Below, one piece after another: positions 5,002 through 27,017 of a stretch of 60,782 nucleotides of DNA. Positions within the stretch are counted from its first letter, which is position 1. Each line of letters begins with the position of its first letter. The position numbers were made by a program, and so were the translations under genes. The notes beneath the pieces are model-generated. The model was not told the DNA's origin. It did not search any database and saw only the letters and a list, made by a program, of their open reading frames with translations. This DNA comes from Cyanophyceae cyanobacterium (lineage in GTDB: Bacteria; Cyanobacteriota; Cyanobacteriia; Cyanobacteriales; JBHJGN01): contig JBHJGN010000056.1 of NCBI GenBank assembly GCA_050331735.1, forward strand, positions 1-60,782, in the 5' to 3' direction.

Positions 5002-6477
5002 ATGAGTTCCTCTTGGTCAGAACCGTTGAGAAATATCTTCTCGTTCTTTCAATCCATTCGCTTTCCGATTGGCGAAGCGGAGCTTTCGCTATTGGCGATC
5101 GCCCAGCTCATTGCCTATCTGGTTGTTGTCTTTGTGCTGGTGCGGCTGCTCAAAAATTTCTTGCAGCAGCGGGTGTTAGTTAAACTCGGCATCGATGGCG
5201 GCAACCGGGCGGCGATCGCCACGATAATTAGCTATGCTGGCGGTGCTTTAATTTACTTTGTGATTTTGCAATCTAGTGGCTTCAATCTGGCTTCCTTGGC
5301 AGTTTTAGCCGGGGGGTTAGGAGTCGGGATCGGTTTTGGTCTGCAAGATCTTACTAAAAATTTTGTCAGCGGTCTGACGCTGCTGATCGAGCGCAACGTT
5401 AAGGTGGGGGATTTTGTCGAAATAGACGATTTGGAGGGATACGTCGAAGAGGTAACCACTCGCTCCACCATTATCCGGACCCGAGACGGCGCTCATATTG
5501 TTGTTCCCAACAGCCAGCTTGTGGAGAATCGGCTCGTCAACTGGACCTACGAAAATCAGACAGGTCGGATCAGCATCGATATTGAGGTCGATGAAGACAG
5601 CGATCCGCTCCTTGTTACTGAAGCGCTGCTCAAATCGGCCTATCAGGAAAAGCATGTACTCTCCGACCCCTCTCCCCAAGTCGTTCTGCGCGGATTTGGA
5701 GACACTTCTTTGATTTTTGCTCTCTGGGTTTGGGTCAATGCCATTGATAAAAAGCCCCTCATTATTAGCAATCTGCATTACTCGATTCGGTACAGCTTAC
5801 GCGCCTATCAGGTGGAGTTGCCCACTCCGCAACGGAATTTTTGGATTAACAATCTCAACGATCTTCGACTTCCGTCTCAGCAAAATGGTCTTGCTGAACG
5901 AGAATCAGCAGAACAATCGGCGCTGCCAACGTCAGCAGTACCGCCTTCAATGCTGCTGATTAGAGATTTGCTCAAACAAGTCCCGTACTTCCAGAGTTTC
6001 AGTGACCTGGAACTAAGAAGAGTGATCGAAAGCGGCTACCATCAGCGCTTGAAAACAGCAGAAATTTTATTTCAGGAGAACGATCCCGGAGATACCTTTT
6101 ACATCGTACTGGCAGGCTCGGTGGAAATTTGGATAGAAAAGCTCCATCGATGCCTCAGTACCCTGGAAGCGGGACAGTTTTTTGGCGAACTAGCCCTCCT
6201 GTTAGGCATCCCCAGAACCGCTACCGTCAAAGCGGCTGAAGAAACAATTTTGTTTGCCATCAATCAAAAGAATTTTCAGAAGATTTTGCAGGAGTCTCCC
6301 GAACTCGAAGAAGTGATTTTCAAAGAGTTGAGTAAGCATCAAGAGGAACTCGCTAAGCGACAGCAGGAGTTAAAGAAACTGGGATGGGACGAAGGAGAGA
6401 GCAATCCGTTAGTTTGGGTGCGGCAAAGACTGAAAAAGATCTTCAATCTCGATTTTGAAGGAAGCGGCAATGTGTGA
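5002..6477 (+). CDS. MscS-family channel with C-terminal cyclic-nucleotide-binding domain
   Basis: GGLGVGIGFGLQDLTKNFVSG, VKVGDFVEI, IVVPNS; CNB domain LFQENDPGDTFYIVLAGSVEI...FFGELALLLGIPRTATV. Confidence 0.92.
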   Translation: MSSSWSEPLRNIFSFFQSIRFPIGEAELSLLAIAQLIAYLVVVFVLVRLLKNFLQQRVLVKLGIDGGNRAAIATIISYAGGALIYFVILQSSGFNLASLAVLAGGLGVGIGFGLQDLTKNFVSGLTLLIERNVKVGDFVEIDDLEGYVEEVTTRSTIIRTRDGAHIVVPNSQLVENRLVNWTYENQTGRISIDIEVDEDSDPLLVTEALLKSAYQEKHVLSDPSPQVVLRGFGDTSLIFALWVWVNAIDKKPLIISNLHYSIRYSLRAYQVELPTPQRNFWINNLNDLRLPSQQNGLAERESAEQSALPTSAVPPSMLLIRDLLKQVPYFQSFSDLELRRVIESGYHQRLKTAEILFQENDPGDTFYIVLAGSVEIWIEKLHRCLSTLEAGQFFGELALLLGIPRTATVKAAEETILFAINQKNFQKILQESPELEEVIFKELSKHQEELAKRQQELKKLGWDEGESNPLVWVRQRLKKIFNLDFEGSGNV

Positions 6478-13965: not shown

Positions 13966-15135
13966 CTACTCATCGCTCGGCACTAACGGCACAAAGCCCG
14001 CATTTTGCACAATTTCTTGTCCTTCTTTAGACAGAAGCATCTGAGTATAAGCCCTGCCTGCCTCTTCATCGAGCGTACCGTCTTCTCGGTAGAGGATAAA
14101 CAACTTGTTGGTGAGGGGATAGTCCCCGGTTTGGAAACTGTCGAGATTGACCATTCCTTCCTCTGTTAGAGGACTAACAAAGTCTCTGGTGATGGGGTTT
14201 TCAACGTTAAGGACGTTGAGCAGTCCCTGCTGAGAGGCCAGAGCCGCACTGACAAAACCGATCGCTCCCGGAGTCCCAATAACCTCTCGAAAGGCCAGCG
14301 TTGGGCTACGAACAATTTCGACGTTGTTTCCCAGTGTTCCTTCTCCCAAGCCAATTTCTTCTAGCGTTTCGATTTCGATGCCGACAGGGTGAATTGGCAA
14401 ATCTGGTCCTCCCACCTGCTTCCAGTTCGTTACCGTTCCGGTAAAGATGCCTCGAAGCTGGTCTATAGTCAGACCCGCAAGCTCAACTTCTCGGTTGGTA
14501 TAGAAAACTGTTCCGCCAATGCCAATGGCTTCTTGAGCGAGCGTAAAATCTCTGAGCGTTTGTTGAGTAATTGCTGCCTGCGATTCGGTATCGGTGAGAG
14601 GCCGACTGGTCGTTGCCAAGCTGAGCGTTCCCTTGATAACTCCCTCGATTCCGTCACTGGAGCTAGCGTTGCGGTCTCCTGGCTCTAGATAAATCAACTC
14701 AAACTCTGGATGAGCATCGGCAATGATCTGACTTAACCCTTTTCTGTTCAAGGCCGCAAAAAAGGCATCTCCGCTGAAGGTCAATCGCATATCGGGGGTA
14801 GGAACCTCGGCAATCGTTCGGTAACGAGTCGTAGAGGGTTCGAGCAGTCTAAATGGCTGTCTCAGTATGACACTGACCGCTACGATAGCTAATCCCGCTA
14901 CTAAAGCACCGATAACAGCACCAATAACCATTGCTCCAGGTCGTACTGGTTTGGGACGAGTCTCTCCGGGTGAGGGAGCTGCTGGCGCTAGATCAGGAGT
15001 CGGAGGAAACTTAAAAACATTTGTTTTGGTTCTTGAATGCAGAGTATGCCCACAAGCCCGGCACTGATTAGCCGCGTCGGAATTCATGGTATATCCACAG
15101 CGGGGACAGGGGGTAGAATCTTTGCTTGACAGCAT
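13966..15135 (-). CDS. PstS-like periplasmic binding domain protein with N-terminal zinc ribbon and one TM helix
   Basis: CPRC...CRAC, hydrophobic segment, SSDGI, TSRPL, GLTIDQLRGIFTGTVTNWKQVGGPDLPI, YPLT. Confidence 0.85.
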   Translation of the reverse strand: MLSSKDSTPCPRCGYTMNSDAANQCRACGHTLHSRTKTNVFKFPPTPDLAPAAPSPGETRPKPVRPGAMVIGAVIGALVAGLAIVAVSVILRQPFRLLEPSTTRYRTIAEVPTPDMRLTFSGDAFFAALNRKGLSQIIADAHPEFELIYLEPGDRNASSSDGIEGVIKGTLSLATTSRPLTDTESQAAITQQTLRDFTLAQEAIGIGGTVFYTNREVELAGLTIDQLRGIFTGTVTNWKQVGGPDLPIHPVGIEIETLEEIGLGEGTLGNNVEIVRSPTLAFREVIGTPGAIGFVSAALASQQGLLNVLNVENPITRDFVSPLTEEGMVNLDSFQTGDYPLTNKLFILYREDGTLDEEAGRAYTQMLLSKEGQEIVQNAGFVPLVPSDE

Positions 15136-16003: not shown

Positions 16004-17644
16004 ATGACTAGCTCAATAGAATTTCAATTATTTGCTCCCTACAACCAAGAGGCAGCGCTGATCGGCTGCTTTTCTAACTGGGAAGCCGTGCCTATGGAAA
16101 AAGACGAGCGAGGCATTTTTCGGACTGCCGTTGAGCTAGCGGATGGCGTTTATCAGTATAAGTTTCGCGTCCGCTCCAAAAGCTGGTTTTTGGAAAGCGA
16201 TCAGTGGGTAGATATCAGCGATCCCTACGCAACAGCCATTGATGATGCTACCCAAAATACCGTTATTCGCATTAAAGAAGGGCAGCCCGTTGTGGATACC
16301 TACGTTTGGCAACACGACGACACCCCCCTGCCCAATAACGAGGAGCTCGTCATTTATGAGCTTTACGTCGCTGGATTTTCTGGTGGGGAAGGAGACAACA
16401 AAGAACGCGGTGATTTTCAAGATGTCATCGACAAGCTAGACTATCTCTGCGAACTCGGCGTTAATGCCGTTGAACTCCTGCCGGTGCAGGAATATCCCGG
16501 GGATGACAATTGGGGCTATACGCCTCGTTACTTTCTGGCAACGGAATCGAGCTATGGTTCTACTGAAGACCTCAAGCGCCTCATCGATGAATGTCACGGC
16601 AAAGGACTACGCGTGATCATGGACGGGATCTTCAATCACTCCGATGCCGAAAGCCCGTTAACGCAAATTGACCACGACTACTGGTATCATCATTCGCCCC
16701 GCGATCCAGACAACAGTTGGGGACCAGAATTCAACTACGAACACTACGACGAACAGTTAGATGTGAAACCAGCCTGGCAGTTCATTGGCGATGTTGTGCG
16801 GTTTTGGATTGAGGAGTATCACATCGACGGGATTCGCTACGATGCCGCCAGACAAATTGCAAATTATGACTTCATGCACTGGATTACCGCCCAAACCAGA
16901 CAAGTTGCTTCGATGAAGTCGTTTTTTAATATTGCTGAGCATATTCCTGAAACCGCAGCGATTGTGGGGCTAGAGGGACCGATGGATAGCTGCTGGCACG
17001 AAAGCTTTCGGCAGCGAGTTACTGACCAGATTTGCGGCGATACGTTCGACCTCGAGGCTCTCAAAGAGGTCATCGACGGTAAGCGCCAGGGCTTTCTCGG
17101 AGCCACAGATATGATCAATTATCTCGCCTCCCACGACCGCAGCAACCTGATGGACAGATTAGGCGAGCACAACATCTTCGACGCAGCCGCTTTTCAAAGA
17201 CTTAAGCTGGGAGCCGTGCTGCTCATGACCGCCGTGGGCATCCCGATGATTTGGATGGGCAGCGAAACAGGAGAATGCGAGACGGTAGAATCAGCGAAGC
17301 TGGACTGGACGCTGCTGGAAAATGATTTAAATCGCAGCTTATTTGACACCTATCGAGGTTTGATTAGTCTTCGTAAAAATCAGGCTCTCCATACTGCCAA
17401 TATTGACTTTTTCTACGAAGATGCGGAGGCAAAAGTGCTGGCGTACAATCGCTGGAACGACGAAGGCTCTCGTGTTGTGGTGGTCGCTAATTTCTCAGAC
17501 CGCTTTTTAGGCGATTATTTAGTGACTCACTTTCCGGAGTCTGGGACTTGGCATGAGTGGACGCGGAACTATGATATTGAAGTGGCAGACGAGATACTTA
17601 CCCTGAGCTTAGGGGGATACGAAGCCCAGGTATTTGTCAAGTAG
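16004..17644 (+). CDS. GH13 alpha-amylase family glycoside hydrolase with N-terminal CBM48-like domain
   Basis: FQLFAP, VIYELYV, LGVNAVELLP, WGY, DGIFNH, DGIRYDA, AEH, SHD. Confidence 0.93.
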   Translation: MTSSIEFQLFAPYNQEAALIGCFSNWEAVPMEKDERGIFRTAVELADGVYQYKFRVRSKSWFLESDQWVDISDPYATAIDDATQNTVIRIKEGQPVVDTYVWQHDDTPLPNNEELVIYELYVAGFSGGEGDNKERGDFQDVIDKLDYLCELGVNAVELLPVQEYPGDDNWGYTPRYFLATESSYGSTEDLKRLIDECHGKGLRVIMDGIFNHSDAESPLTQIDHDYWYHHSPRDPDNSWGPEFNYEHYDEQLDVKPAWQFIGDVVRFWIEEYHIDGIRYDAARQIANYDFMHWITAQTRQVASMKSFFNIAEHIPETAAIVGLEGPMDSCWHESFRQRVTDQICGDTFDLEALKEVIDGKRQGFLGATDMINYLASHDRSNLMDRLGEHNIFDAAAFQRLKLGAVLLMTAVGIPMIWMGSETGECETVESAKLDWTLLENDLNRSLFDTYRGLISLRKNQALHTANIDFFYEDAEAKVLAYNRWNDEGSRVVVVANFSDRFLGDYLVTHFPESGTWHEWTRNYDIEVADEILTLSLGGYEAQVFVK

Positions 17645-17817
17645 TCGGACACGAAAGCGCAGTGGCGGCGATCGCCTTGCCGATTAACCCGGTCTTGACT
17701 TTTGTCTGCTGCTGACGCTTCATTCGCTGAGGCCAAGCTTAAAGATTCTTAATACTTCCTCGGAGGCTAAACGCGACGAATGAGGTTATAAATAAGCCGT
17801 GTGAGGAGGAATTGAAG

Positions 17818-18006
17818 ATGAAACCCCGGAAACTGAGTCAACATACTCAGCTTGAAATTGCCTGTAGCGATTTTGTGCATATTTCTCAAAGAATCCATCC
17901 CAGAGGACATTTCGATCGCTATATCAAAGTAGACCGAGAAGAAGCCAAGCAACTGGTGAGGCATCTCCTCGATTGGGTGCTAGCAGAGGAGAACGCAAAC
18001 GTTTGA
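17818..18006 (+). CDS. Small hypothetical protein (62 aa)
   Basis: Strong SD GAGGAGG at 17803-17809 upstream of ATG 17818; protein-like composition. Confidence 0.5.
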   Translation: MKPRKLSQHTQLEIACSDFVHISQRIHPRGHFDRYIKVDREEAKQLVRHLLDWVLAEENANV

Positions 18007-18470
18007 GGAGGCGATCAGGACTTCAGATGAGCAATGCTTGAAAAAGCCCAAGCACGCTATCGGTCAGGACTGGCATCAGTAGATTGAACTTCTTTGATTT
18101 TATTACCTATCTTCCCTCTGCTGTGGGCGATATTTTCCTGGGAATGCGCTGCTTAATGATACACTGACCGTTTATTGGTTTTGACAGTCAAATTGCTCGA
18201 TAAATTCGCAATAAAGCTAATTGTGTACTCGTGAAACACCCATTAATCTACAAAACATTCAGAATCCTAAATACTTGCGTTGTTTTTCCTATCAACAGTT
18301 AAGTGAGATATGTGTTCAACAGGAAATAACCATGCAGGTCACCAGATCTAGAAATTTGTTCCTTCTTCTCGTGGTTCATCCTATCAAGGGTGAAACTGTT
18401 ACGGTTACCGAAATATCTCCTCCGGACTTGACCATGAAATAAGTTATCAAAGCTGGAACATTGGCGTGTC

Positions 18471-18510
18471 AATGGCGAGTTGAGGAGTCATTCCTCCTCA
18501 ACTCGCCATT
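18471..18510. terminator. Perfect 17-bp inverted repeat (hairpin or terminator)
   Basis: aatggcgagttgaggag-tcattc-ctcctcaactcgccatt followed by actttatt. Confidence 0.65.
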
Positions 18511-19415
18511 ACTTTATTCGCTCTGAATTACCGCTACTGAGTTCATGTTATTAGGTAGCGTCTCGATTGCCACTTGTTGATGCCCTTACAACTGATGCGG
18601 CTCATCGGTATGAATTTTCTAGCCTGTTCTGCATCCTTAGTGCAGCATTCGAGTATTAATGGTGCTGTTCACTCTGACACTGACTTCATGTCGCTGCGTT
18701 CGCAGCATCCTTTTTAAAATGTCTCAGCGCGTTTATCCTCACTTGCTTGGTATCATGCGCATGCAGGTCCATTTCCTCTCCTGCCACTCTACAGCCCACA
18801 TTCCACAGGCAATTTTAGATGAGTAAGTAATGATGAGAAAAAGAGGAACAGGAAAAGCATATTCGGAGAGAATGAGCAGCATTTGAGAACTCAATTTTAT
18901 TCAATATATTTGCTGGTGTCTACGTTTGACCGAATATACTTTATGCAACAAAAATGCAATCATGGCAATAGTATAGACTATAGACAACGTAAAGAAGCTA
19001 ATAATTTTATTGCCAGTTATTAATATAACTTGCCTAAACAATTTTCTTGTAAAAGAATGGAAGATAGTTAATTTAAAAGTAAGCAGCAAGCAAGCCTTAT
19101 CTTTGTTGACAAAGTTCTCCGTTTCTCTAGCAGCTTTATTTGTAATCTACCCGGCATTCCAATCAAGCAGGTAATCGCTGTTGGTAATTAAGCAGCTTAA
19201 TAAGTTGCGTCTTTTAAAGTTAAGTCGAATCTATTCGCTTTGCCCGAAATAATTCTACTATAAGAATAGTACTTTTTAGATTCTGAAAAAAAATGATTGT
19301 GAGCTTTTTTACTGAGTATCTTGGGAAAATATTCAGTCAGCTCATAGTGATTTAACAAATTTGGGCTTAAAAGCTTCTCGAATCATCTTTAAGTACCTAA
19401 ATATTGGAGTAAATC

Positions 19416-19970
19416 ATGAATATTAATGGAAACGAATTGGATAAAGATATCAAGTCATTTCTTTCGTATGCGCTTGCTATCGAACCTAAGGTATCTATAG
19501 GAGGAGTTGAGTTTCATTTTAATGAAACAGAAAAACTTTCAGACCGCGAATTTGCGTCAATTGATGAATTAATGAGGAAGTATGAAAAAGTAAAAAGATT
19601 ACTTCCAGATGAATCTTCGCTTGATTCGCTACAGATAACTAAAGAGAAACCAATCGTCCAATTTGAGCCAAATACCAACTATCAAATTGTGACGGTAAAC
19701 GCAGAACAGCTTGACCTGACAAAAGACATATATCAGCGCATTGCGCAAATTCATCAATCTTATACCGAGGAGAATCATTCGCAGGCTAGAAACAAATTTG
19801 ACGATCTACAGTCTTTTCTCAATGAAAAGCGGAGGTCGTTTCTTGGTGATTTTCAAAGGATTTCTGCAATAGATGATACAGTTGGAATGCATGCCGTCGG
19901 AGCTGGCGGAGACCCTCAGACTCAAGTCGTAGTTATCTTTATTATCATTGAGATCTACGTAGAATACTAA
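19416..19970 (+). CDS. Hypothetical protein with hydrophobic beta-rich C-terminal tail (precursor-peptide-like)
   Basis: SD GGAG before ATG; 184-aa open frame in AT-rich DNA; ends GAGG-DPQTQVVVIFIIIEIYVEY. Confidence 0.75.
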   Translation: MNINGNELDKDIKSFLSYALAIEPKVSIGGVEFHFNETEKLSDREFASIDELMRKYEKVKRLLPDESSLDSLQITKEKPIVQFEPNTNYQIVTVNAEQLDLTKDIYQRIAQIHQSYTEENHSQARNKFDDLQSFLNEKRRSFLGDFQRISAIDDTVGMHAVGAGGDPQTQVVVIFIIIEIYVEY

Positions 19971-20000
19971 AATCAGTACAGCATTCTTCGGTTTATTAAC

Positions 20001-20070
20001 ATCAGGACTTACGCAGCTAAGTAAATATGGCCCCCTACCCCTCCCGAAAATTAGGGAAAGGGGTAGGGAG
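20001..20070. repeat. Cyanobacterial dispersed repeat or MITE-like remnant with GC-rich hairpin
   Basis: atcaggacttacgca followed by ccctacccctccc-gaaaatta-gggaaaggggtaggg hairpin. Confidence 0.5.
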
Positions 20071-20579
20071 GAGTGAAGGATTTAGAGAGCAAATATATAG
20101 CTCCTGTACATTTTAATAAGAGGCGTTCTTTCTTTGTGATTTGTAAAGTACTCATGCTTGAGATAATGTAATTGAAGCTCGTGAGAACTTTACAAAATAG
20201 TGAAGTGAGTTTTGAACATTTATTTACATAAATGCTTGGCCTTGCTTACTGCGCTTCTCCCATCGTTGTTTTTGGTATTTTTCGAATTCAAAAGCTATTT
20301 TTTGAACAAAAAGTTAATAACAATTTTTTTGCAATATGTAGCTTTCTAAACAATCCTGATCAATAATATTTGGCCATTAAATTTTATTTAAATGCAAAAA
20401 CAATTGCTTTGGTTAGCTAATTCAAGCACTAACTTTACATTGTTTTGCATTCTCCATATGGCAAGCCTCAAAAAATTGATCGATATAGCTTGGTTTTCTA
20501 AGGGCTAGAAATAAGCTATTAAATCTGCAAACTAATTATTTTATCCTGTCGTCGTTAATAAATAAACTAAATAGAACAT

Positions 20580-21410
20580 ATGTTTTCAATTGCTCAAACT
20601 CCCGAAGTTAAAGCTCTTTCTAAAAGCCTAGATTCTTTGCAAAATAGCTATGATAAGCTGCAAATGTGTTTTATAGAACACGTTCAAAGCAGCTTTTTTG
20701 AAAACTTTGTTAAAAGAGAAATTGAAAAAATTGCAGTTGACTCCTACCATAATGTTCGATGTAACGTAGGTCAGCTAAATTTCACGGTAATTAATAATGA
20801 AAAGTTTGACTATACCATACGTCTTTCTCCTCGCATGGTTCGATGTCCTCATCCTATTAAATGGCTTGGCAACAAACAAATTATTGCTATTGAAGGGCCA
20901 GGAACTGCAACTGTGAAAAGAATGATGGTTCCAAACTACACATGCTTAAATAATTTTGTCCAAGGAATCGAGATTGTAGAAACATCCGAAGGAATTCTTA
21001 AAAAAGGAGAATTCATTTCAAGTAATAAAATTCATGAGGTTTTAGATGTTTGTGAAATTAAATCTACTGTGATTCTTCATTCACTTATAGTTAAAAATTT
21101 AGAGGCGGAGCTTTACTGGACCTTTAATCAAAAAAATATTTCAGCTTTTTCAGAATCATCTCGTGTGGTAAATTCGCGCCTTAGAAATATTCTTGATATT
21201 GCTTATAAGTTTAATGTTGATATTTCTGATAATATTTATGATTTAATATTTACGTATGGCGATGCTCAGCTTAAGCTTTCTGCAATACAAATTATGCTGA
21301 CTTCAAAAAAAGTTGAAGGATTTAGGGAGCTGCAAAAAGCTATAGATTCAAATAATACAATGCTGAGTGGCGGCGGACAAGCCATATTAAATAGACTGTT
21401 TTCTTCTTAA
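20580..21410 (+). CDS. Hypothetical protein, degenerate cupin-like core + C-terminal HEAT-like helices
   Basis: Beta-rich core (YTIRL, IIAIEGPGTATV, LKKGEFI, VILHSL) and DAQLKLSAIQIML...ELQKAIDS helices; no HxH motif. Confidence 0.7.
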   Translation: MFSIAQTPEVKALSKSLDSLQNSYDKLQMCFIEHVQSSFFENFVKREIEKIAVDSYHNVRCNVGQLNFTVINNEKFDYTIRLSPRMVRCPHPIKWLGNKQIIAIEGPGTATVKRMMVPNYTCLNNFVQGIEIVETSEGILKKGEFISSNKIHEVLDVCEIKSTVILHSLIVKNLEAELYWTFNQKNISAFSESSRVVNSRLRNILDIAYKFNVDISDNIYDLIFTYGDAQLKLSAIQIMLTSKKVEGFRELQKAIDSNNTMLSGGGQAILNRLFSS

Positions 21411-21561
21411 AATAGTGGTACATGGCGGCACAAATAGCTGACTATTTTTAGTTCATTTCTTCAGGCTTTTTTATCAAAATTTATATACGGCAAAACTTTA
21501 CATTCTCCGTATGTCCGTGTGATTTAAAAGAATATAGCATTATATTTGGAGAGTATTAATC

Positions 21562-22458
21562 ATGCCCTTGAAAATCGAGTTACCAAACGATGATGTCAAG
21601 ATAAGCCTTGATGAATTTTTATCTATTGTAGATAGTAAAAATTGCAATTTTGACAATCAAGAATCAATTCTTGAGATTGCACCGCACTTAAAGCACCTTA
21701 GTCATAACAAAAGATTTTTAATAGAGAAGAACTTAGAAGATCTGAAAGATCTAGCAAATTTCCAACTCTTGAATTACTATGGCCCACAAGTTTTTATGCT
21801 GCATACGTGCGACAAGTATTTCGTCCGGGCCAATGTCTGGAGAACTGTATCTCAGCTAGAAAATTCTATCGATGAATTTAAGTATGATATCTGTCATGAT
21901 CATAATTTCGATATTCTTACGGTCGGATACTTAGGTCCTGGCTATCGTGCGCGTACTTATACATATGACATAACAAAAGTCGAGGGATTATTGGGAGAGA
22001 AGGTGCCGATGGAAGCGGAAGGCATCCTTACTCTTGAAGAAGGATGTGTACTCCTTTATCGGGCTAAAAAAGATATACATATACAAATGCCACCGGATGA
22101 TCTATCTGTATCTCTAAACTTTATTCCGAGAAATAGAAAAATTGATCTTCCTCAATTTCAGTTTAACGAGGAAAACAGTACTATTTGTCGGTATCTCCAT
22201 TCGTCAGGTAAAGAATTAGTCGTTAGACTAGCGGGCTTGTTGGGAGATGAAAATACATTTGATGTTCTCGATACTATTGCTCAACGTCATCATAGTCCCC
22301 ATCTACGAGCGCTGGCTGCCTTATCTCAAATTCAAATTGCACCCGATAAAGAGGAAAGTGTTTATGAACGCCTTATTAAACAAGGAACTGTTGTTGAACG
22401 ATTTATTGTTGATGTAGAAAAGGAAAACTATGGACGGTGCTTGACATTATGGGATTAG
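21562..22458 (+). CDS. Cupin-fold putative non-heme-iron oxygenase (HDH...H) + HEAT-like C-terminus
   Basis: YGPQVFML, FVRANVW, CHDHNFDILTVGYLGPGY, LYRAKKDIHIQ, SVSLN, SPHLRALAA; SD GGAG. Confidence 0.8.
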   Translation: MPLKIELPNDDVKISLDEFLSIVDSKNCNFDNQESILEIAPHLKHLSHNKRFLIEKNLEDLKDLANFQLLNYYGPQVFMLHTCDKYFVRANVWRTVSQLENSIDEFKYDICHDHNFDILTVGYLGPGYRARTYTYDITKVEGLLGEKVPMEAEGILTLEEGCVLLYRAKKDIHIQMPPDDLSVSLNFIPRNRKIDLPQFQFNEENSTICRYLHSSGKELVVRLAGLLGDENTFDVLDTIAQRHHSPHLRALAALSQIQIAPDKEESVYERLIKQGTVVERFIVDVEKENYGRCLTLWD

Positions 22459-22746
22459 TTGCAGAATTAGCGAGAGCGTCATCAAGGGCAACTATAAGAA
22501 AAATTGCAGCTTTTAATACTTGAGTTAGGACATAGATATTCTCAGAGTCACGAGGTACAATAACAGTGAGCAAAACTGAGCTTCTTGAGGAAATACTTTA
22601 AATCTCTTGGAGGAGTGAGATAAAGCACATCAATACGCTCCTAAAATTGTGGGAACTGTTTATGGATAGCTCAAGCGGCGGAACCACTTCCGCCCCTGTG
22701 TCCTTTGATGAATCGCCCCAGAAAATGTGGCTTTAGCGATTTAATA

Positions 22747-24399
22747 TTAATCCCAAATGGTGCAGCGTAAGTCTCCAGATTTTTGGGAGAGACGCAAGTT
22801 TTCGCCGTAGTCTACAGGACAGTCGATAATGGTCGGAACGTTTTGAGCAAGAGCCGTTTTAAGAGTGGGCAGAAAGTCGCTTGCCGACTCAATTCGGTAG
22901 CCTTTTAGTCCCATGCTTTCGGCGAATTTGACAAAATCAGGATTCTTAAAGTGAACAAAGGCCGATTCTCCAAACTGGTCGAGCTGTTTCCATTCAATCA
23001 ACCCGTAGCCGTTATCGTTGAAGATCAGCACCACAAACGGATGGCCAACTCGTAAAGCCGTTTCTAATTCCTGGCAGTTCATCATAAAGCCACCGTCTCC
23101 CGTCACCGCCACCACTCGGCGGTCTGGGCGAACGAGCTTGGCGGCGATCGCTCCTGGAATGGCAATGCCCATTGAGGCAAATCCGTTGGAGATAATGCAG
23201 GTGTTGGGGCGATCGCTGTGGTAGTGTCGCGCCATCCACATCTTGTGCGCCCCCACATCAGAAATGACGATATCTTCGGCCTCCATGACCTGCCGCAGAT
23301 CGTAAATTAATTTTTGGGGCTTAATCGGAAACCCAGCGTCATCGGTGTAGCGCTCGTATTCTGAGCGCAGTTCGGCGCGAAGATTGGCAACGGCTGGCGT
23401 GGGTTGACCCTCGCGGTCGGCCCGTTTGATGAGCTCTAGCAAAGAGTCGGAAATGTCGCCAACCACCTCTACTAAGGGGATGTAGCTGCTGTCTATTTCT
23501 GCTGAGATAGTGCCGATATGAACGATGGGAGTCTCGCCTGTGGGGTTCCATTTCTTTGGAGAATATTCGATTAAGTCGTACCCCACGGCAATCACTAAAT
23601 CGCTTTCTTCAAAGGCGCAGCTAATCAAATCTCGCTGCTGCAAGCCGACAGTCCAGAGAGAGAGGGGATGGGTATAGGGAATGGCCCCTTTGCCCATAAA
23701 CGTATTCACCACCGGAATGTTGAGGCGAGTGGCAAATTCAGTGAGCGCTTCGCTGGCACTCGCCCGGATCGCCCCATTCCCCGCTAAGATGAGGGGCTTT
23801 TTGGCCTTGGCAATGGCGATCGCGGCACTGTTGAGGCTGCGGAAGGAGGCATAGGTTTTCTCGCGCGTATCTTGATTCAGCGGCTGACCTGGGGCTGACA
23901 TGGCCGCGATATTTTCCGGCAGGTTAATATGCACCGCTCCTGGTTTCTCGCTTTGAGAAAGCTTGAAGGCTTTCCGCACAATTTCTGGAGTGTTACTCGG
24001 GCGCACAATCTGAGTACTCCACTTGGTCACGGGAGCAAACATCGCCACCAGATCCAAATATTGATGAGCTTCTATATGCATCTGGTCGGTGCCGACCTGT
24101 CCGGTAATCGCCACCAGCGGTGCCCCGTCTAGGTTTGCATCAGCGACGCCCGTCATCAAATTCGTCGCTCCCGGCCCGAGGGTAGACAAACACACGCCTG
24201 CTTTCCCGGTTAAGCGTCCGTAAACGTCTGCCATAAATGCTGCCCCCTGTTCGTGACGGGTGGTAATAAACTGAATCGAAGAATGCCGAAGCGCTTCTAA
24301 AACGTGAAGGTTTTCTTCTCCTGGCAACCCGAAAACGTATTCGACCCCTTCGTTTTCTAGGCACTGCACCAGTAGCTCGGCTGTATTAAGTTCCCCCAT
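22747..24399 (-). CDS. ThDP-dependent acetolactate-synthase-like enzyme, probably cyanobacterial 2-oxoglutarate decarboxylase
   Basis: Start re-assigned to MGELNTAELLV (ATG 24399). FGLPGEENL, TRHEQGAAFMAD, GDGGF...ND motif. Confidence 0.88.
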   Translation of the reverse strand: MGELNTAELLVQCLENEGVEYVFGLPGEENLHVLEALRHSSIQFITTRHEQGAAFMADVYGRLTGKAGVCLSTLGPGATNLMTGVADANLDGAPLVAITGQVGTDQMHIEAHQYLDLVAMFAPVTKWSTQIVRPSNTPEIVRKAFKLSQSEKPGAVHINLPENIAAMSAPGQPLNQDTREKTYASFRSLNSAAIAIAKAKKPLILAGNGAIRASASEALTEFATRLNIPVVNTFMGKGAIPYTHPLSLWTVGLQQRDLISCAFEESDLVIAVGYDLIEYSPKKWNPTGETPIVHIGTISAEIDSSYIPLVEVVGDISDSLLELIKRADREGQPTPAVANLRAELRSEYERYTDDAGFPIKPQKLIYDLRQVMEAEDIVISDVGAHKMWMARHYHSDRPNTCIISNGFASMGIAIPGAIAAKLVRPDRRVVAVTGDGGFMMNCQELETALRVGHPFVVLIFNDNGYGLIEWKQLDQFGESAFVHFKNPDFVKFAESMGLKGYRIESASDFLPTLKTALAQNVPTIIDCPVDYGENLRLSQKSGDLRCTIWD

Positions 24400-24713
24400 G
24401 ATGGTGTGTTGCTCGGTACTTAAGATGAAATTGTGTTTTGCAAAAAGAATGACACCCACAGTATGGGTGTCCTGACTCCGGTTTATCACATATAGAGGAG
24501 AACTGCTACCGCTATTTTGTTGAGGATGCCTAGTCAATGTTTAGTTCTTAAACTAGCCTGAACCAGAATACTGATTTTTGCTACTTTGCGTCAAACTCAA
24601 TTCTGAAGAAAACCTTACCCTGTTCGCACTCCGTCCAGCAACAGAGACAGAGGACGAACTCGATTTAGCGGATGCGGACATTAATGGACTGAATTCGAGC
24701 GAACTTTCTCTCT

Positions 24714-27017
24714 TCAGCTTATCTCTGCCATGAGCGTCTCCACAACCTCGGCAAAAACTGCTTCCCACTGTTGCGGTTGTCTCTGTCGAAATAGTCGCAT
24801 CGTTGGATACCAAGGGCTATCCTCTCGGTACAGCATCCAGCGCCAGTCCGGACAAAAAGAGAGCAGTGTCCATACAGGCTTACCAAGCCCGCCTGCTAAG
24901 TGGACTACGGCGGTGTCAACGCTAATCACTAAATCTAAAGACAAAATGATTCGAGCGGTAGCGGCAAAATTAGTCAGGTGAGGACTTAAATCAACCAGGC
25001 TGACTTGGGGCGATAGGTGCGTTAACTCCTCGGTGCGCGGACCCTTTTGCAAGCTATAAAAAGTACAATTGGTCAGCTTCAGAACGGGCAAAAACTGCTT
25101 TAGGGAGCAGGAACGGTGGCGATCATTTTTGTGAGTCGGACTTCCTGACCAGACAATCCCAATCTTTTTCCCCTCAGCAGGCGGTAAAGGAAATTGATTG
25201 AGTCCTTCCCCAACATAAGGAACCGTCGCCGGGATGCTATTTAATGTTGTTCCGAGGAGATGCGGTAAGCTCATCAGCGGAGCATAGGTATGGAACTCAG
25301 ACAGAGGAATCTCTCCAGGAGTATAGATAGTATCAATTGCTGTGATAGTTGCAAACAGAGATACCAAATTTTCCGGACAGCAGAGCAGCAGACGACGACA
25401 GCGCGATCGCACCAAGGGCAGGTAGCGAATAAACTGAATCGCATCTCCGGCTCCCTGTTCTGTGTGAATCAGAATCGTTTGCTTTTCAATATTGCTCCCA
25501 TCCCAGCGAGGATGGCGACAAACAAAGGGAGTAAACTGTTGAGTTTGCCAGCGCCACTCGCTCTCAGCAAAGCCTTCCTTGAGTTCTCCTTGCAGCAGCA
25601 GCGTCATCCCCAGGTTGAAGTGGGCATCGGGAAAACGTTCTCGTCGTTGAATGGCTTGACGGAAGTGAGCGATCGCTTCTTCTAAATAGAGCTGTCGATG
25701 AGCAATAATTCCTAAATTATTGTAGGCATCGGCATGATGCGGTTCTAAGTTAACCACCTGATGCAGGAATTCCCTGGCGGCTGACCACCGTTCCTGCTCT
25801 AGACAGATGACTCCTAGGTTATAGCGAGCCACGGTGAAACTCGGGTCCAGCTCTAAGCAGTGCTGGTAGTGCTGGAGAGCTTCTTGCCAGTTGCCTTTGT
25901 GGTAGGCGTGGTTGCCCAAGCTGAGGTAGACATTTGGTTCTCGTGGTTGCGTTAGAGGCGGCACCACCTCTTGCAAGGCTTCATCCGGCAGCACAAACGA
26001 ACTGCCCAAGAGCGACTCGTCCCAATCAATGATTTCTGGAAAGCGAGTATTGGGAATCACCTGCACTGCAAAGATTTCCTGTACGCCCTCCTCAAAGCGC
26101 AGAAAAGCCACAATTTGACCGCTACGGAGATTAATGACCCAGACGCCGCAAATTCGCTCCTCCGTTTCAGTAATGGGAATCCCGCTAAACACTGCCGTTT
26201 CCCGGACCTGCGATAGCCCAACAAACCCCCACTCTCCCCAAAAATCGAGTCCCCGAGTGAAGCTGGGTAGGTGGGTGACCACCTCCCGCTTACCCGTCAC
26301 CGCATCGACTCTTGATAAACTCCCCACTCCCGACTCGAGAACCCAAAGCTGATTCGCGTACCAGCGGGGTGAATGGGGCATCGACAAACCCTGGCAGAGA
26401 ATCTGATTGGTTTCTATATCCATCAGAATGCCGCCGTAGGCTTTATGGTCGCGCCAGCCTGCGGGGGTATCTGTCGTGCCTAACGCCGTTACATATTTCG
26501 GTTGCCCGTCCCTTATGCCCAAGCCGTTGAGGTGACAGCGGTCTGTTAAATCGTAACCACTAATAAATGGCGGTCGCCAGCGCGGGACAAAGCTATGACG
26601 AGCATCGAGGGTACACAGGCAGGAAAAGCGGGTGTTGACGAACCAGAGTTCATCTTGGGCAAAGGCCATTTCATGGATGTCAATATCGCCAGTGGTATGA
26701 ATTTTGTGGGGCAGGTAGCAGGCATCGTGCTTGCCCGGGGGGTCTATTCTTTGAGCAACAGCGGGAACGTTGCGCAACTCCCAAATTTGGTAAGCTGTTC
26801 CGAGCGCGATCTTTTCTCGACTGACGGCTAACCCCATCGGTTTATTAAAGGTACGAAAATGGGTGTTAATGACGCTGCCATCGGAGCGCAGCACAATTAG
26901 TTTACCTGCCTGATAGGTAGAGACGACGAGGGAAATATCGAGGTGGTCGAGTAGGAAAGGAAAATTGGTGGTGTGGACGCTGCGCAGGGGACTTTGAGCC
27001 GCAGAATTATCGTTCAT
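24714..27017 (-). CDS. TIGR03032 (DUF4915) domain + TPR + glycosyltransferase-like (GT9-type) fusion protein
   Basis: STYQAGKL, DIDIHEM, VNTRFSCL, DRCHLNG, SMPHSPRW; TPRs; EQGAGDAIQFIRY, ISVDTAVVHLAG, DWRW...SPWYP. Confidence 0.88.
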   Translation of the reverse strand: MNDNSAAQSPLRSVHTTNFPFLLDHLDISLVVSTYQAGKLIVLRSDGSVINTHFRTFNKPMGLAVSREKIALGTAYQIWELRNVPAVAQRIDPPGKHDACYLPHKIHTTGDIDIHEMAFAQDELWFVNTRFSCLCTLDARHSFVPRWRPPFISGYDLTDRCHLNGLGIRDGQPKYVTALGTTDTPAGWRDHKAYGGILMDIETNQILCQGLSMPHSPRWYANQLWVLESGVGSLSRVDAVTGKREVVTHLPSFTRGLDFWGEWGFVGLSQVRETAVFSGIPITETEERICGVWVINLRSGQIVAFLRFEEGVQEIFAVQVIPNTRFPEIIDWDESLLGSSFVLPDEALQEVVPPLTQPREPNVYLSLGNHAYHKGNWQEALQHYQHCLELDPSFTVARYNLGVICLEQERWSAAREFLHQVVNLEPHHADAYNNLGIIAHRQLYLEEAIAHFRQAIQRRERFPDAHFNLGMTLLLQGELKEGFAESEWRWQTQQFTPFVCRHPRWDGSNIEKQTILIHTEQGAGDAIQFIRYLPLVRSRCRRLLLCCPENLVSLFATITAIDTIYTPGEIPLSEFHTYAPLMSLPHLLGTTLNSIPATVPYVGEGLNQFPLPPAEGKKIGIVWSGSPTHKNDRHRSCSLKQFLPVLKLTNCTFYSLQKGPRTEELTHLSPQVSLVDLSPHLTNFAATARIILSLDLVISVDTAVVHLAGGLGKPVWTLLSFCPDWRWMLYREDSPWYPTMRLFRQRQPQQWEAVFAEVVETLMAEIS

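Follow-up and report, generated by a model that had tools for sequence, protein, structure and literature searches.

A three-histidine cupin-HEAT protein, its histidine-less paralog and a precursor-like protein form a candidate peptide-modification module

Results

A cassette of three co-oriented genes

We analysed a stretch of DNA of 60,782 nucleotides (nt) from a cyanobacterium (Cyanophyceae; contig JBHJGN010000056.1 of assembly GCA_050331735.1, positions 1 to 60,782), which at its full length is referred to below as the window, and in particular a cassette of three co-oriented genes within it that we call g1, g2 and g3. A preliminary description, made from the sequence alone, had noted that these genes have no recognisable function and had suggested that they encode a precursor-like protein followed by an inactive and an active cupin-HEAT protein that together modify a peptide. 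All three open reading frames (ORFs) are present, and none of their products has a match in Pfam or NCBIfam. The same is true of g1 and g2 in PADLOC (PADLOC-DB 2.0.0, a library that dates from 2023), in which g3 has only a sub-threshold match to ZorD (expect value, E, of 0.013; 11.2 bits), and an Atlas search with g1 returned nothing above noise. The features of the cassette are as follows.

19416-19970, + strand: g1, 184 amino acids (aa), with an N-terminal helical domain (residues ~1-140) followed by a precursor-like peptide module
19836..19970, + strand: peptide module of g1 (residues 141-184), with a leader-like motif D-x-V-G-M-H-A-V-G, a GG and an Ile/Val-rich tail containing one conserved Glu
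20031..20071, + strand: stable hairpin, 60 nt past the g1 stop codon (RNA fold of -32.9 kcal/mol, z -4.0)
20580-21410, + strand: g2, a 276-aa cupin-HEAT protein without the histidine triad, putative non-catalytic peptide-docking subunit
21562-22458, + strand: g3, 298 aa, with a cupin (residues ~10-213) and a HEAT-like domain (residues ~214-289), putative catalytic subunit
21895..21903, + strand: codons of H112-D113-H114 of g3, including the first two putative metal ligands, invariant in 50/50 homologs
22078..22080, + strand: codon of H173 of g3, which is invariant in 50/50 homologs, belongs to the second cupin motif and is the last of the three putative metal ligands

g3 combines a thiol dioxygenase-type cupin with a HEAT-like domain

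The AlphaFold2 model of g3, which has a predicted local distance difference test score (pLDDT) of 90.4, begins with helices, continues as a beta-barrel and ends in five further helices. When this model was compared with 48,161 representative chains using VIA-align, ranks 1-7 were all occupied by thiol dioxygenases with Z scores of 10.0-13.9 (8vni 13.9, 6xb9 13.1, 4ubg 12.8, 4qm8 11.6, 6s0p 11.0, 8qfl 10.5 and 7lvz 10.0), the superpositions having root-mean-square deviations of 3.4-3.7 over 141-169 residues and covering model residues 10-213, whereas cupins other than thiol dioxygenases reached Z scores of at most 8.9. The thiol dioxygenases matched in this way include MDO, CDO, PCO4 (Z 11.0) and ADO (Z 10.0). 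Foldseek, of which VIA-align is independent, also placed this class of enzymes at the top (4tlf, 8vni, 6xb9, rat and human CDO, PCO4/5 and ergothioneine dioxygenase; E values of ~1e-6 to 1e-4), and CDO, MDO and PCO_ADO clusters are among the structural neighbours of the Atlas model of g3. The C-terminal residues 214-289 resemble HEAT proteins in VIA-align (alphaRep, Z 7.7-8.3; YibA, Z 7.8), with scores in a range that can be generic for helical repeats, and a Nostoc homolog of g3 scores 27.6 bits against Pfam HEAT_2, just under the cut-off of 27.7. The earlier view of g3 as a protein resembling three-histidine cupins with added HEAT-like helices therefore agrees with the predicted fold.

The motifs on which that view was based, CHDHNF (residues 110-116), DIH (171-173) and SVSLN (182-186), are all present, and most of their residues are invariant. 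A search for homologs of g3 found 111 proteins, and in an alignment of 50 homologs the residues H112, D113, H114, N115 and F116, D171, H173 and Q175, and S184 and N186 are conserved in all 50; the second cupin motif, as read from the sequence, is G161-x9-D171-x-H173-x-Q175. The three-histidine thiol dioxygenases have a ligand set without an acidic ligand, and g3 resembles them in having the pattern H-D-H...H, in which the putative ligands are three invariant histidines and none is acidic. A second-sphere Ser-His-Tyr triad of CDO and MDO is described in PMC10966181; at the corresponding place, where four CDO_I proteins have S-x-H-x-Y, g3 has the invariant S184-x-N186 followed after one residue by an aliphatic residue, an equivalence made by motif position only. 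When PF05995 was searched against relatives of g3 and against four genomes carrying the module no sequence link was found, and the predicted link of g3 to the thiol dioxygenases is one of fold and motif alone.

g2 is a paralog of g3 without the histidines

The model of g2 (pLDDT 95.8) is of higher confidence than that of g3 and has the same three-part architecture, and its top Foldseek matches are also thiol dioxygenases (E ~1e-6), so that the cupin fold which had been supposed for both proteins is predicted, in its thiol dioxygenase-type form, for both. When a 55-sequence alignment of g2 was compared with that of g3 using hhalign, the two families aligned over 261 columns with a probability of 97.7% (E 1.4e-12). 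The three pairs of segments in which a likeness had first been noticed (IIAIEGPG/TVGYLGPG, LKKGE/LEEGC and LKLSA/LRALA) are paired column for column in this alignment, and the histidine sites are replaced in g2: HDHNF of g3 faces GNKQI, where g2 had been remarked to lack an HxH, and DIHIQ faces EVLDV. Neither BLASTP between g2 and g3 nor the comparison of a shallow 7-sequence g2 profile with g3 detected anything, and the relationship becomes visible only with deep alignments. At the level of these alignments, g2 is a full-length paralog of g3 without the histidines.

A word-indexed homolog search with g2 returned only g2 itself; the family was found by tblastn on the loci and by an exhaustive profile search, which gave 97 representatives, the more distant of which terminate in a canonical HEAT motif. 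A Nostoc homolog of g2 scores 42.3 bits against Pfam HEAT_2, which is above the cut-off, and has weak matches to NblB (E 3.7e-5) and CpcE (E 2.2e-4) that are far under the respective cut-offs.

We examined the pair in 80 loci, i.e. the best 80 of at least 559 in species-representative genomes; these are mostly from Sphingomonadales and include many metagenome-assembled genomes (MAGs) of one genus. A g2-like frame ends no more than 200 nt before the start of g3 in 80/80 loci (worst E 2.4e-9, using a hidden Markov model (HMM) of distant g2 relatives), and the same HMM also matches the g3 frame in 64 of the 80. Locus L010 at first sight carries a fusion of g2 and g3, but we rejected this reading: g2 is encoded there in a frame of its own (5045-5995), and what makes the ORF long is that the g3 frame, in a genome of high guanine-plus-cytosine (GC) content, happens to run on without stops. 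A separate protein of 683 aa, P0182, matches the g2 profile over residues 436-677 (E 6.7e-6), which are preceded by an N-terminal part of 430 residues; in P0182 the module may exist as a fusion.

Short peptide genes lie upstream of the pair

We built a profile from 43 aligned small ORFs located upstream of g2 and used it to search all 18,949 stop-to-stop frames of at least 20 aa on both strands of the 80 loci. The profile matched 65 frames in 64/80 loci, all of them on the + strand, which is that of g2, and all ending ahead of the g2 homology, by 3-734 nt (median 171), and no other frame among the 18,949 scored up to E = 1. Counted from the nearest Met upstream, the peptides have a median length of 46 aa. 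Common to them is an N-terminal segment, I-D-I-x-x-L-P-E-L-x-T-x-V-G-I-H-G-S-x-x-Q-x-E-V-G-G or close variants of it, which is followed by an Ile/Val-rich tail within a few residues of whose end the frame stops; at least five distinct tail types occur among the 43 aligned sequences. In 42 distinct DNA sequences of the 21-codon leader, the numbers of variable sites at the first, second and third codon positions were 13, 9 and 21, with summed entropies of 11.8, 9.0 and 27.0. Most of the variation falls at third codon positions, which is the signature of a gene that is translated and under constraint.

Some loci have several peptide genes in tandem: two copies with nearly the same leader and differing cores in L020 (4488-4957) and three copies with different tails in L068 (4276-5010). 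A second type of leader, L-E-D-L-E-like, was picked out by eye in L009, L010, L013, L068, L075 and L076; a profile of this type gave 14 weak matches, 11 of which were peptides of the main type, and revealed two further tandem copies in L068. Locus L055 has a likely peptide, and L004 and L073 are incomplete because the contig ends within them. Overall, a tail-bearing ORF accompanies the pair in at least 69/80 loci as judged by profile or BLAST (64 with a small peptide and five of the g1 type described below), and in 6-7 more as judged by eye. A Cys stands at the start of the tail in 44/65 small peptides and in 14/20 g1 proteins, which, as a feature of the sequences, fits a thiol dioxygenase-like chemistry in those peptides that have it.

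Loci L007 and L048, in which no upstream peptide was recognised, share a Sulfotransfer_4 gene that is convergent with g3 (L007:6798-7637, E 7.5e-62; L048:6965-7714, E 7.8e-67), and the module may occur there in a form that acts on a different substrate.

g1 resembles a small peptide fused to a larger domain

In the window the place of the small peptide upstream of g2 is taken by g1, for which we found 20 homologs at E <=3e-45. As had been pointed out earlier, g1 ends in a GG followed by a short hydrophobic tail; this tail is Ile/Val-rich and contains F175 and E179, which together with S14, A19, L20, Q98 and A124 are invariant in 22 homologs, V173 and I180 being nearly so. When the last ~44 residues of the g1 family were compared with the small peptides using hhalign, they aligned motif-to-motif and tail-to-tail over 36 columns (probability 73%, E 3e-5), whereas the plain peptide HMM gave only weak matches to g1 proteins, all of them correctly located (the best of the 20 proteins reached E 0.0014). 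Because of this C-terminal alignment and the shared position upstream of g2, g1 is likely to be a small peptide fused to a ~140-aa N-terminal domain; because the plain HMM matches are weak, we rate this homology, which is judged from sequence comparison, as likely and not as proven. For the N-terminal ~140 residues no relatives were detected outside the g1 family.

Homologs of g1 lie directly upstream of g2 in L001, L002, L003, L005 and L006. The g1 type is limited to these five, the closest among the complete loci, which come from Williamsia, Mucilaginibacter, an Acidobacteriaceae MAG, Pseudarthrobacter and Streptomyces paradoxus and in which the genes are tightly packed, a Puia contig being cut inside g2; the g1-type cassette occurs in four phyla. 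The spacer between g1 and g2 is no more than ~100 nt in L001-L006, with the genes overlapping in L002 and L006, as against 609 nt (19971-20579) in the window, where the spacer between g2 and g3 is 151 nt. We searched the long spacer for an extra small peptide and found none, and we rejected the idea that it is a repeat or mobile insertion, as it is unique in the genome. It does contain the hairpin at 20031-20071, which none of 200 shuffled sequences equalled in stability, whose sequence occurs once in the genome, and which has no U-tract after it and was not listed by a terminator scan. This hairpin could set the expression ratio of g1 to g2 and g3.

A ternary model places the leader-like segment of g1 on g2

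Modelling of the trimer had been put forward in the preliminary description as a check on its proposal. We predicted the three-chain complex of g3, g2 and g1, with g1 as the partner and each chain having its own alignment. The median ipSAE was 0.65 (runs of 0.65, 0.00 and 0.71) compared with 0.02 for the best control, and swapping g3 for an unrelated protein abolished the score. A mark of 0.65 is reached by 116/157 solved complexes and by 2/215 mismatched pairs, a calibration outside which a prediction with three chains and alignments of our own falls. In the model, g1 residues 9-24 (the helix with the invariant S14, A19 and L20) and 139-161 (the leader-like segment) are placed on g2 residues 228-276 and 190-202; most of the confident contacts with g1 are borne by g2 residues 228-276, and there are a few contacts between g1 and g3. 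The prediction speaks for, without demonstrating, a ternary complex with the g2 HEAT domain as the reader of the leader, and in particular it supports the binding of g1.

Distribution, neighbouring genes and annotation of the module

The g3 module is found in at least 559 loci and in Pseudomonadota, Actinomycetota, Bacteroidota, Acidobacteriota, Cyanobacteriota, Myxococcota and Planctomycetota. In Sphingomonadales the pair is accessory (10/81 sampled genomes). The neighbourhood that the preliminary description had expected was found in part i.e. the partner gene (80/80 loci) and the tail-bearing ORF (at least 69/80) are there, but a C39 peptidase or ABC exporter gene is not conserved in the flanks examined; isolated exporter-type genes occur in L068 (ABC) and L013 (HlyD). 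A gene for an extracytoplasmic function (ECF)-type sigma-70 factor adjoins the module in 24/80 loci, upstream in 23 (e.g. L012:4012-4644 and L019:4035-4706) and downstream in one (L010:6952-7554). In 11 other loci of the 80 a gene for an OmpR-type winged-helix protein directly follows g3 (e.g. L008:6914-7351 and L017:6944-7549).

The label 'transposase', which had been mentioned for proteins of this type, does exist on relatives of g3: NCBI applies it to P0077, P0079, P0084, P0085, P0090 and P0096, Allosphingosinicella being among them, and related Atlas clusters are automatically named 'Transposase'. A transposase function was not supported by our fold and family searches, and these names are probably propagated misannotation. 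Other members of the module are labelled 'hypothetical' or 'HEAT repeat'. In open-access literature, at the level of titles and abstracts, we found no description of a cupin-HEAT pair with an upstream peptide.

The cassette was acquired horizontally

The cassette lies in a region whose composition differs from that of its surroundings.

18000..22650, no strand: low-GC island with the cassette, between an alpha-amylase-family gene and a gene for a thiamine pyrophosphate-dependent enzyme

In 300-nt windows, GC content is 29-42% in ~18.75-22.65 kb versus 47-58% on both sides. The g3 profile has a single occurrence in its own genome and matched 0/40 other genomes of the same order. A separately built contig from sequencing run X1 has 0 differences from the window over 17871 to beyond 24000, at the same depth as the left flank; as this contig spans the island, the island is not an assembly chimera. 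Run X1 is possibly the source sample and so does not count as independent data, and run X2, which gave a 222-nt piece only, was not used as evidence. The cassette has therefore been horizontally acquired.

Discussion

A candidate three-part peptide-modification module

We propose that the cassette is a three-part peptide-modification module with the peptide as its substrate, a reading to which we give a probability of about one half. In this proposal g3 would be the catalytic subunit, a three-histidine cupin with a single metal ion (most likely Fe(II)), a thiol dioxygenase fold and a HEAT-like domain, and g2, an ancient paralog of g3 that has lost the metal ligands, would pair with it and dock a leader-like segment on its own HEAT domain. 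The substrate would be a ribosomal peptide composed of a leader motif and a short Ile/Val-rich C-terminal core. In most lineages it would be a free peptide of ~46 aa encoded just upstream, whereas in the clade to which the window belongs it would be carried on the C-terminus of a ~140-aa domain (g1) that provides a second contact with g2. We envisage that g3 oxidises the core, at the Cys at its start where this is present and at another residue where it is absent, as is the case in the window.

We favour a peptide-modifying oxygenase because it is the simplest model that uses all of the parts. The logic of peptides that are synthesized on ribosomes and modified after translation (RiPPs) is suggested by the conserved leader with divergent cores, by the multi-copy precursors and by the frequent Cys at the start of the tail. 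A more ambitious version, which we put forward only tentatively, is that the module defines a new class of ribosomal peptides, in which a heterodimer of a three-histidine iron enzyme of thiol dioxygenase fold and its dead paralog would read the leader through HEAT repeats and oxidatively rewrite a short and highly hydrophobic core at the C-terminus, and in which one branch, including that of the window, would have fused the precursor to a carrier domain.

Several observations weigh against the proposal. Around 14 diverse and the 6 closest loci, the flanks show no conserved leader protease, exporter or immunity gene, and no C39 or other peptidase and no ABC exporter is conserved in these loci or in the flanks of the window. 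The connection to thiol dioxygenases has no counterpart in sequence: g3 and g2 gave nothing up to E = 1 against PF05995 and PF07847, PF05995 has no match anywhere in the genome, phmmer and g3-family profile searches of the PDB matched nothing, and hhalign of g3 with a 4-sequence CDO_I alignment paired only H-D-H and was not significant. The putative metal ligands H112, H114 and H173 are assigned from motif position and invariance only. No tail Cys is present in 21/65 small peptides and in 6/20 g1 proteins, including that of the window, and with a third of the tails lacking it thiol oxidation cannot be the universal reaction. In L007 and L048, the only two complete loci of this kind, there is no recognisable upstream peptide. 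As for the ternary model, which as noted goes beyond the calibration of the tool, one run out of three had a score of 0.00, contacts agreed between runs to at least 0%, the pLDDT of the partner was at least 46, the fold of g1 is uncertain, and the hydrophobic tail of g1 was left unplaced, with only residue 180 listed. Finally, the locus counts are not independent, because Sphingomonadales, many of them represented by MAGs of one genus, dominate the sample.

Alternative explanations

Some of the same observations could be accommodated if the peptide, or g1, were not a substrate but an anchor or scaffold, its N-terminal part clamping the HEAT domain of g2 and its tail lying in the membrane, while g3 oxidised a small thiol or lipid-soluble compound. 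The closest folds are all those of small-molecule or N-terminal-Cys thiol dioxygenases, every type of tail is hydrophobic and stands at the end of the protein, no protease or exporter is conserved, and in the model the tail is left free while the conserved segment of g1 is docked on g2, all of which would suit such a membrane-tethered oxygenase. We nevertheless consider it unlikely: the tails, at ~10-14 hydrophobic residues, rich in beta-branched ones and usually containing Glu, Asp or Tyr-Glu, would be short and odd for an anchor, the tandem peptide genes with different tails (L068 and L020) would be left unexplained, and no metabolic gene is consistently linked to the module. A role as a redox or oxygen-sensing switch, in which g3 would oxidise the peptide (at Cys where present) in an oxygen-dependent manner and the state of the complex would control a neighbouring regulator, would be analogous to the oxidation of N-terminal Cys by PCO and ADO or to ChrR, an anti-sigma factor that bears a cupin. 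Such a role would suit the high rank of PCO4 and ADO in the fold comparison of g3 (Z 11.0 and 10.0) and the presence of ECF sigma genes next to 24/80 loci and of OmpR-type genes downstream in 11/80; a separate anti-sigma gene between sigma and peptide was not seen in the loci read. However, the cassette of the window and its five closest relatives have no adjoining regulator, the sigma-linked loci are mostly from one genus, a third of the peptides lack Cys, and searches of g2 and g3 revealed no anti-sigma domain; we consider a switch improbable.

The hydrophobic peptide or g1 tail could also be a membrane-active toxin that is checked or activated by the cupin-HEAT pair, i.e. the cassette could be a conflict module of the toxin-antitoxin or anti-phage kind. 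Its accessory and horizontally spread nature (a low-GC island, 0/40 genomes of the same order, 10/81 Sphingomonadales, four phyla for the g1 type), the neighbourhood of the L003 cassette, with a Gp49/HTH_37 pair next to it and a PIN-domain gene not far away, and the location of one relative on a Streptomyces plasmid would be expected of such a module. Against this, g1, g2 and g3 have no significant PADLOC match, other loci are flanked by ordinary metabolic genes, an invariant metal triad and a strict pairing of enzyme and pseudoenzyme are atypical of toxin-antitoxin systems, and the known small membrane toxins have a longer hydrophobic stretch than the peptides here; we regard this explanation as very doubtful. 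As to the possibility that g3-type proteins are transposases, as some records have it, only names speak for it (those of the NCBI Allosphingosinicella relatives and of the Atlas clusters). The cupin and HEAT fold is not that of a DDE, HUH or recombinase protein, neither g3 nor the so-named P0077 and P0090 belong to a Pfam or NCBIfam transposase family, and the g3 gene is single-copy in the genome, and so we give this possibility practically no credence.

Comparison with known systems

Among solved structures, the folds nearest to g3 as well as to g2, with N-terminal helices and a barrel, are those of the thiol dioxygenases, i.e. CDO, the 3-mercaptopropionate, mercaptosuccinate and ergothioneine dioxygenases, PCO and ADO (families CDO_I, PF05995, and PCO_ADO, PF07847). 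g3 has no detectable sequence homology to these enzymes and, unlike them, has a C-terminal HEAT domain, and always occurs with a ligand-less paralog and nearly always with a preceding peptide gene. PCO and ADO share the fold class of g3 (6s0p, Z 11.0; 7lvz, Z 10.0), but they require an N-terminal Cys, whereas the candidate site here is near the C-terminus and its Cys is missing in a third of the peptides. In PMC8503633 and PMC11406360, PCO and ADO are described as acting on polypeptides and not on small molecules alone.

The presence of a short co-oriented precursor gene beside the enzymes is a feature that the module shares with RiPP systems, as is a conserved leader with a variable core and sometimes several copies of the precursor; a leader peptidase or exporter in the cluster, which RiPP systems also have, did not appear as a conserved element in the 14 and 6 loci or in the window. 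Two-subunit iron oxidases are known from RiPP pathways, in which a multinuclear non-heme iron-dependent oxidase (MNIO, DUF692) works with a non-catalytic partner, e.g. MbnB/MbnC, TglH/TglI and the bufferin proteins BufB/BufC. The shared logic is that of a short precursor directly upstream, an oxidase of the iron type and a partner without catalytic function that is proposed to hold the leader, and the likeness extends to multi-copy precursors at some loci and to ECF sigma genes beside others. The catalytic fold of MNIO enzymes is, however, a TIM-barrel that is unrelated to the cupin here, the partner in the present module is a paralog of the enzyme, and recognition is apparently HEAT-like and not by a PqqD-like or DUF2063 element. 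The HEAT-repeat lyase and adaptor proteins of cyanobacteria (CpcE/CpcF and NblB) and YibA of E. coli share only a short helical repeat with the C-termini of g2 and g3; unlike g2 and g3 they have no cupin, and there is no bilin context at the cassette. The general logic of precursor, enzyme and non-catalytic partner is thus already known from RiPP pathways. From those pathways neither the enzyme family nor the paralogous pseudoenzyme is known, and the same holds for the docking through HEAT repeats that the model suggests and for the probable fused-carrier variant.

If the peptide is the substrate, thiol dioxygenase-type chemistry would be extended to ribosomal peptides, the RiPP repertoire would gain an enzyme/pseudoenzyme pair with HEAT-based leader recognition, and genome mining would have a new signature that is easy to recognise, namely two cupin-HEAT genes preceded by a short ORF that carries the leader motif. 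This is a widespread module for which there is no Pfam or NCBIfam model and whose members are in part mislabelled as 'transposase'; even if the peptide proves to be only an anchor or a sensor, the corrected annotation and the recognition of a three-part unit make a large orphan family experimentally approachable.

Flanking genes and island borders

The genes on either side of the island were assigned using Pfam.

16004-17644, + strand: left neighbour, an alpha-amylase-family gene
22747-24537, - strand: right neighbour, a gene for a thiamine pyrophosphate (TPP)-dependent enzyme

No tRNA, integrase or repeat was found at the borders of the island. An Rfam scan of 17000-23500 gave microRNA and small RNA matches at chance level only, and a promoter and terminator scan did not give more sites than shuffled sequences. 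Just left of the island, at 17776-17886, the X1 contigs break up into several short variants with 1-3 differences and a 255-nt loose end, and this left border may be a strain-variable or repeated site. Further to the right, and unrelated to the cassette, 24714-27017 (- strand) encodes a 767-aa protein with DUF4915 (E 2.4e-130), tetratricopeptide repeats and a weakly heptosyltransferase-like C-terminus. To the left, 13966-15135 (- strand) encodes a protein resembling periplasmic binding proteins (PBP_like_2, E 4.9e-21), with an N-terminal CxxC...CxxC segment and a hydrophobic stretch.

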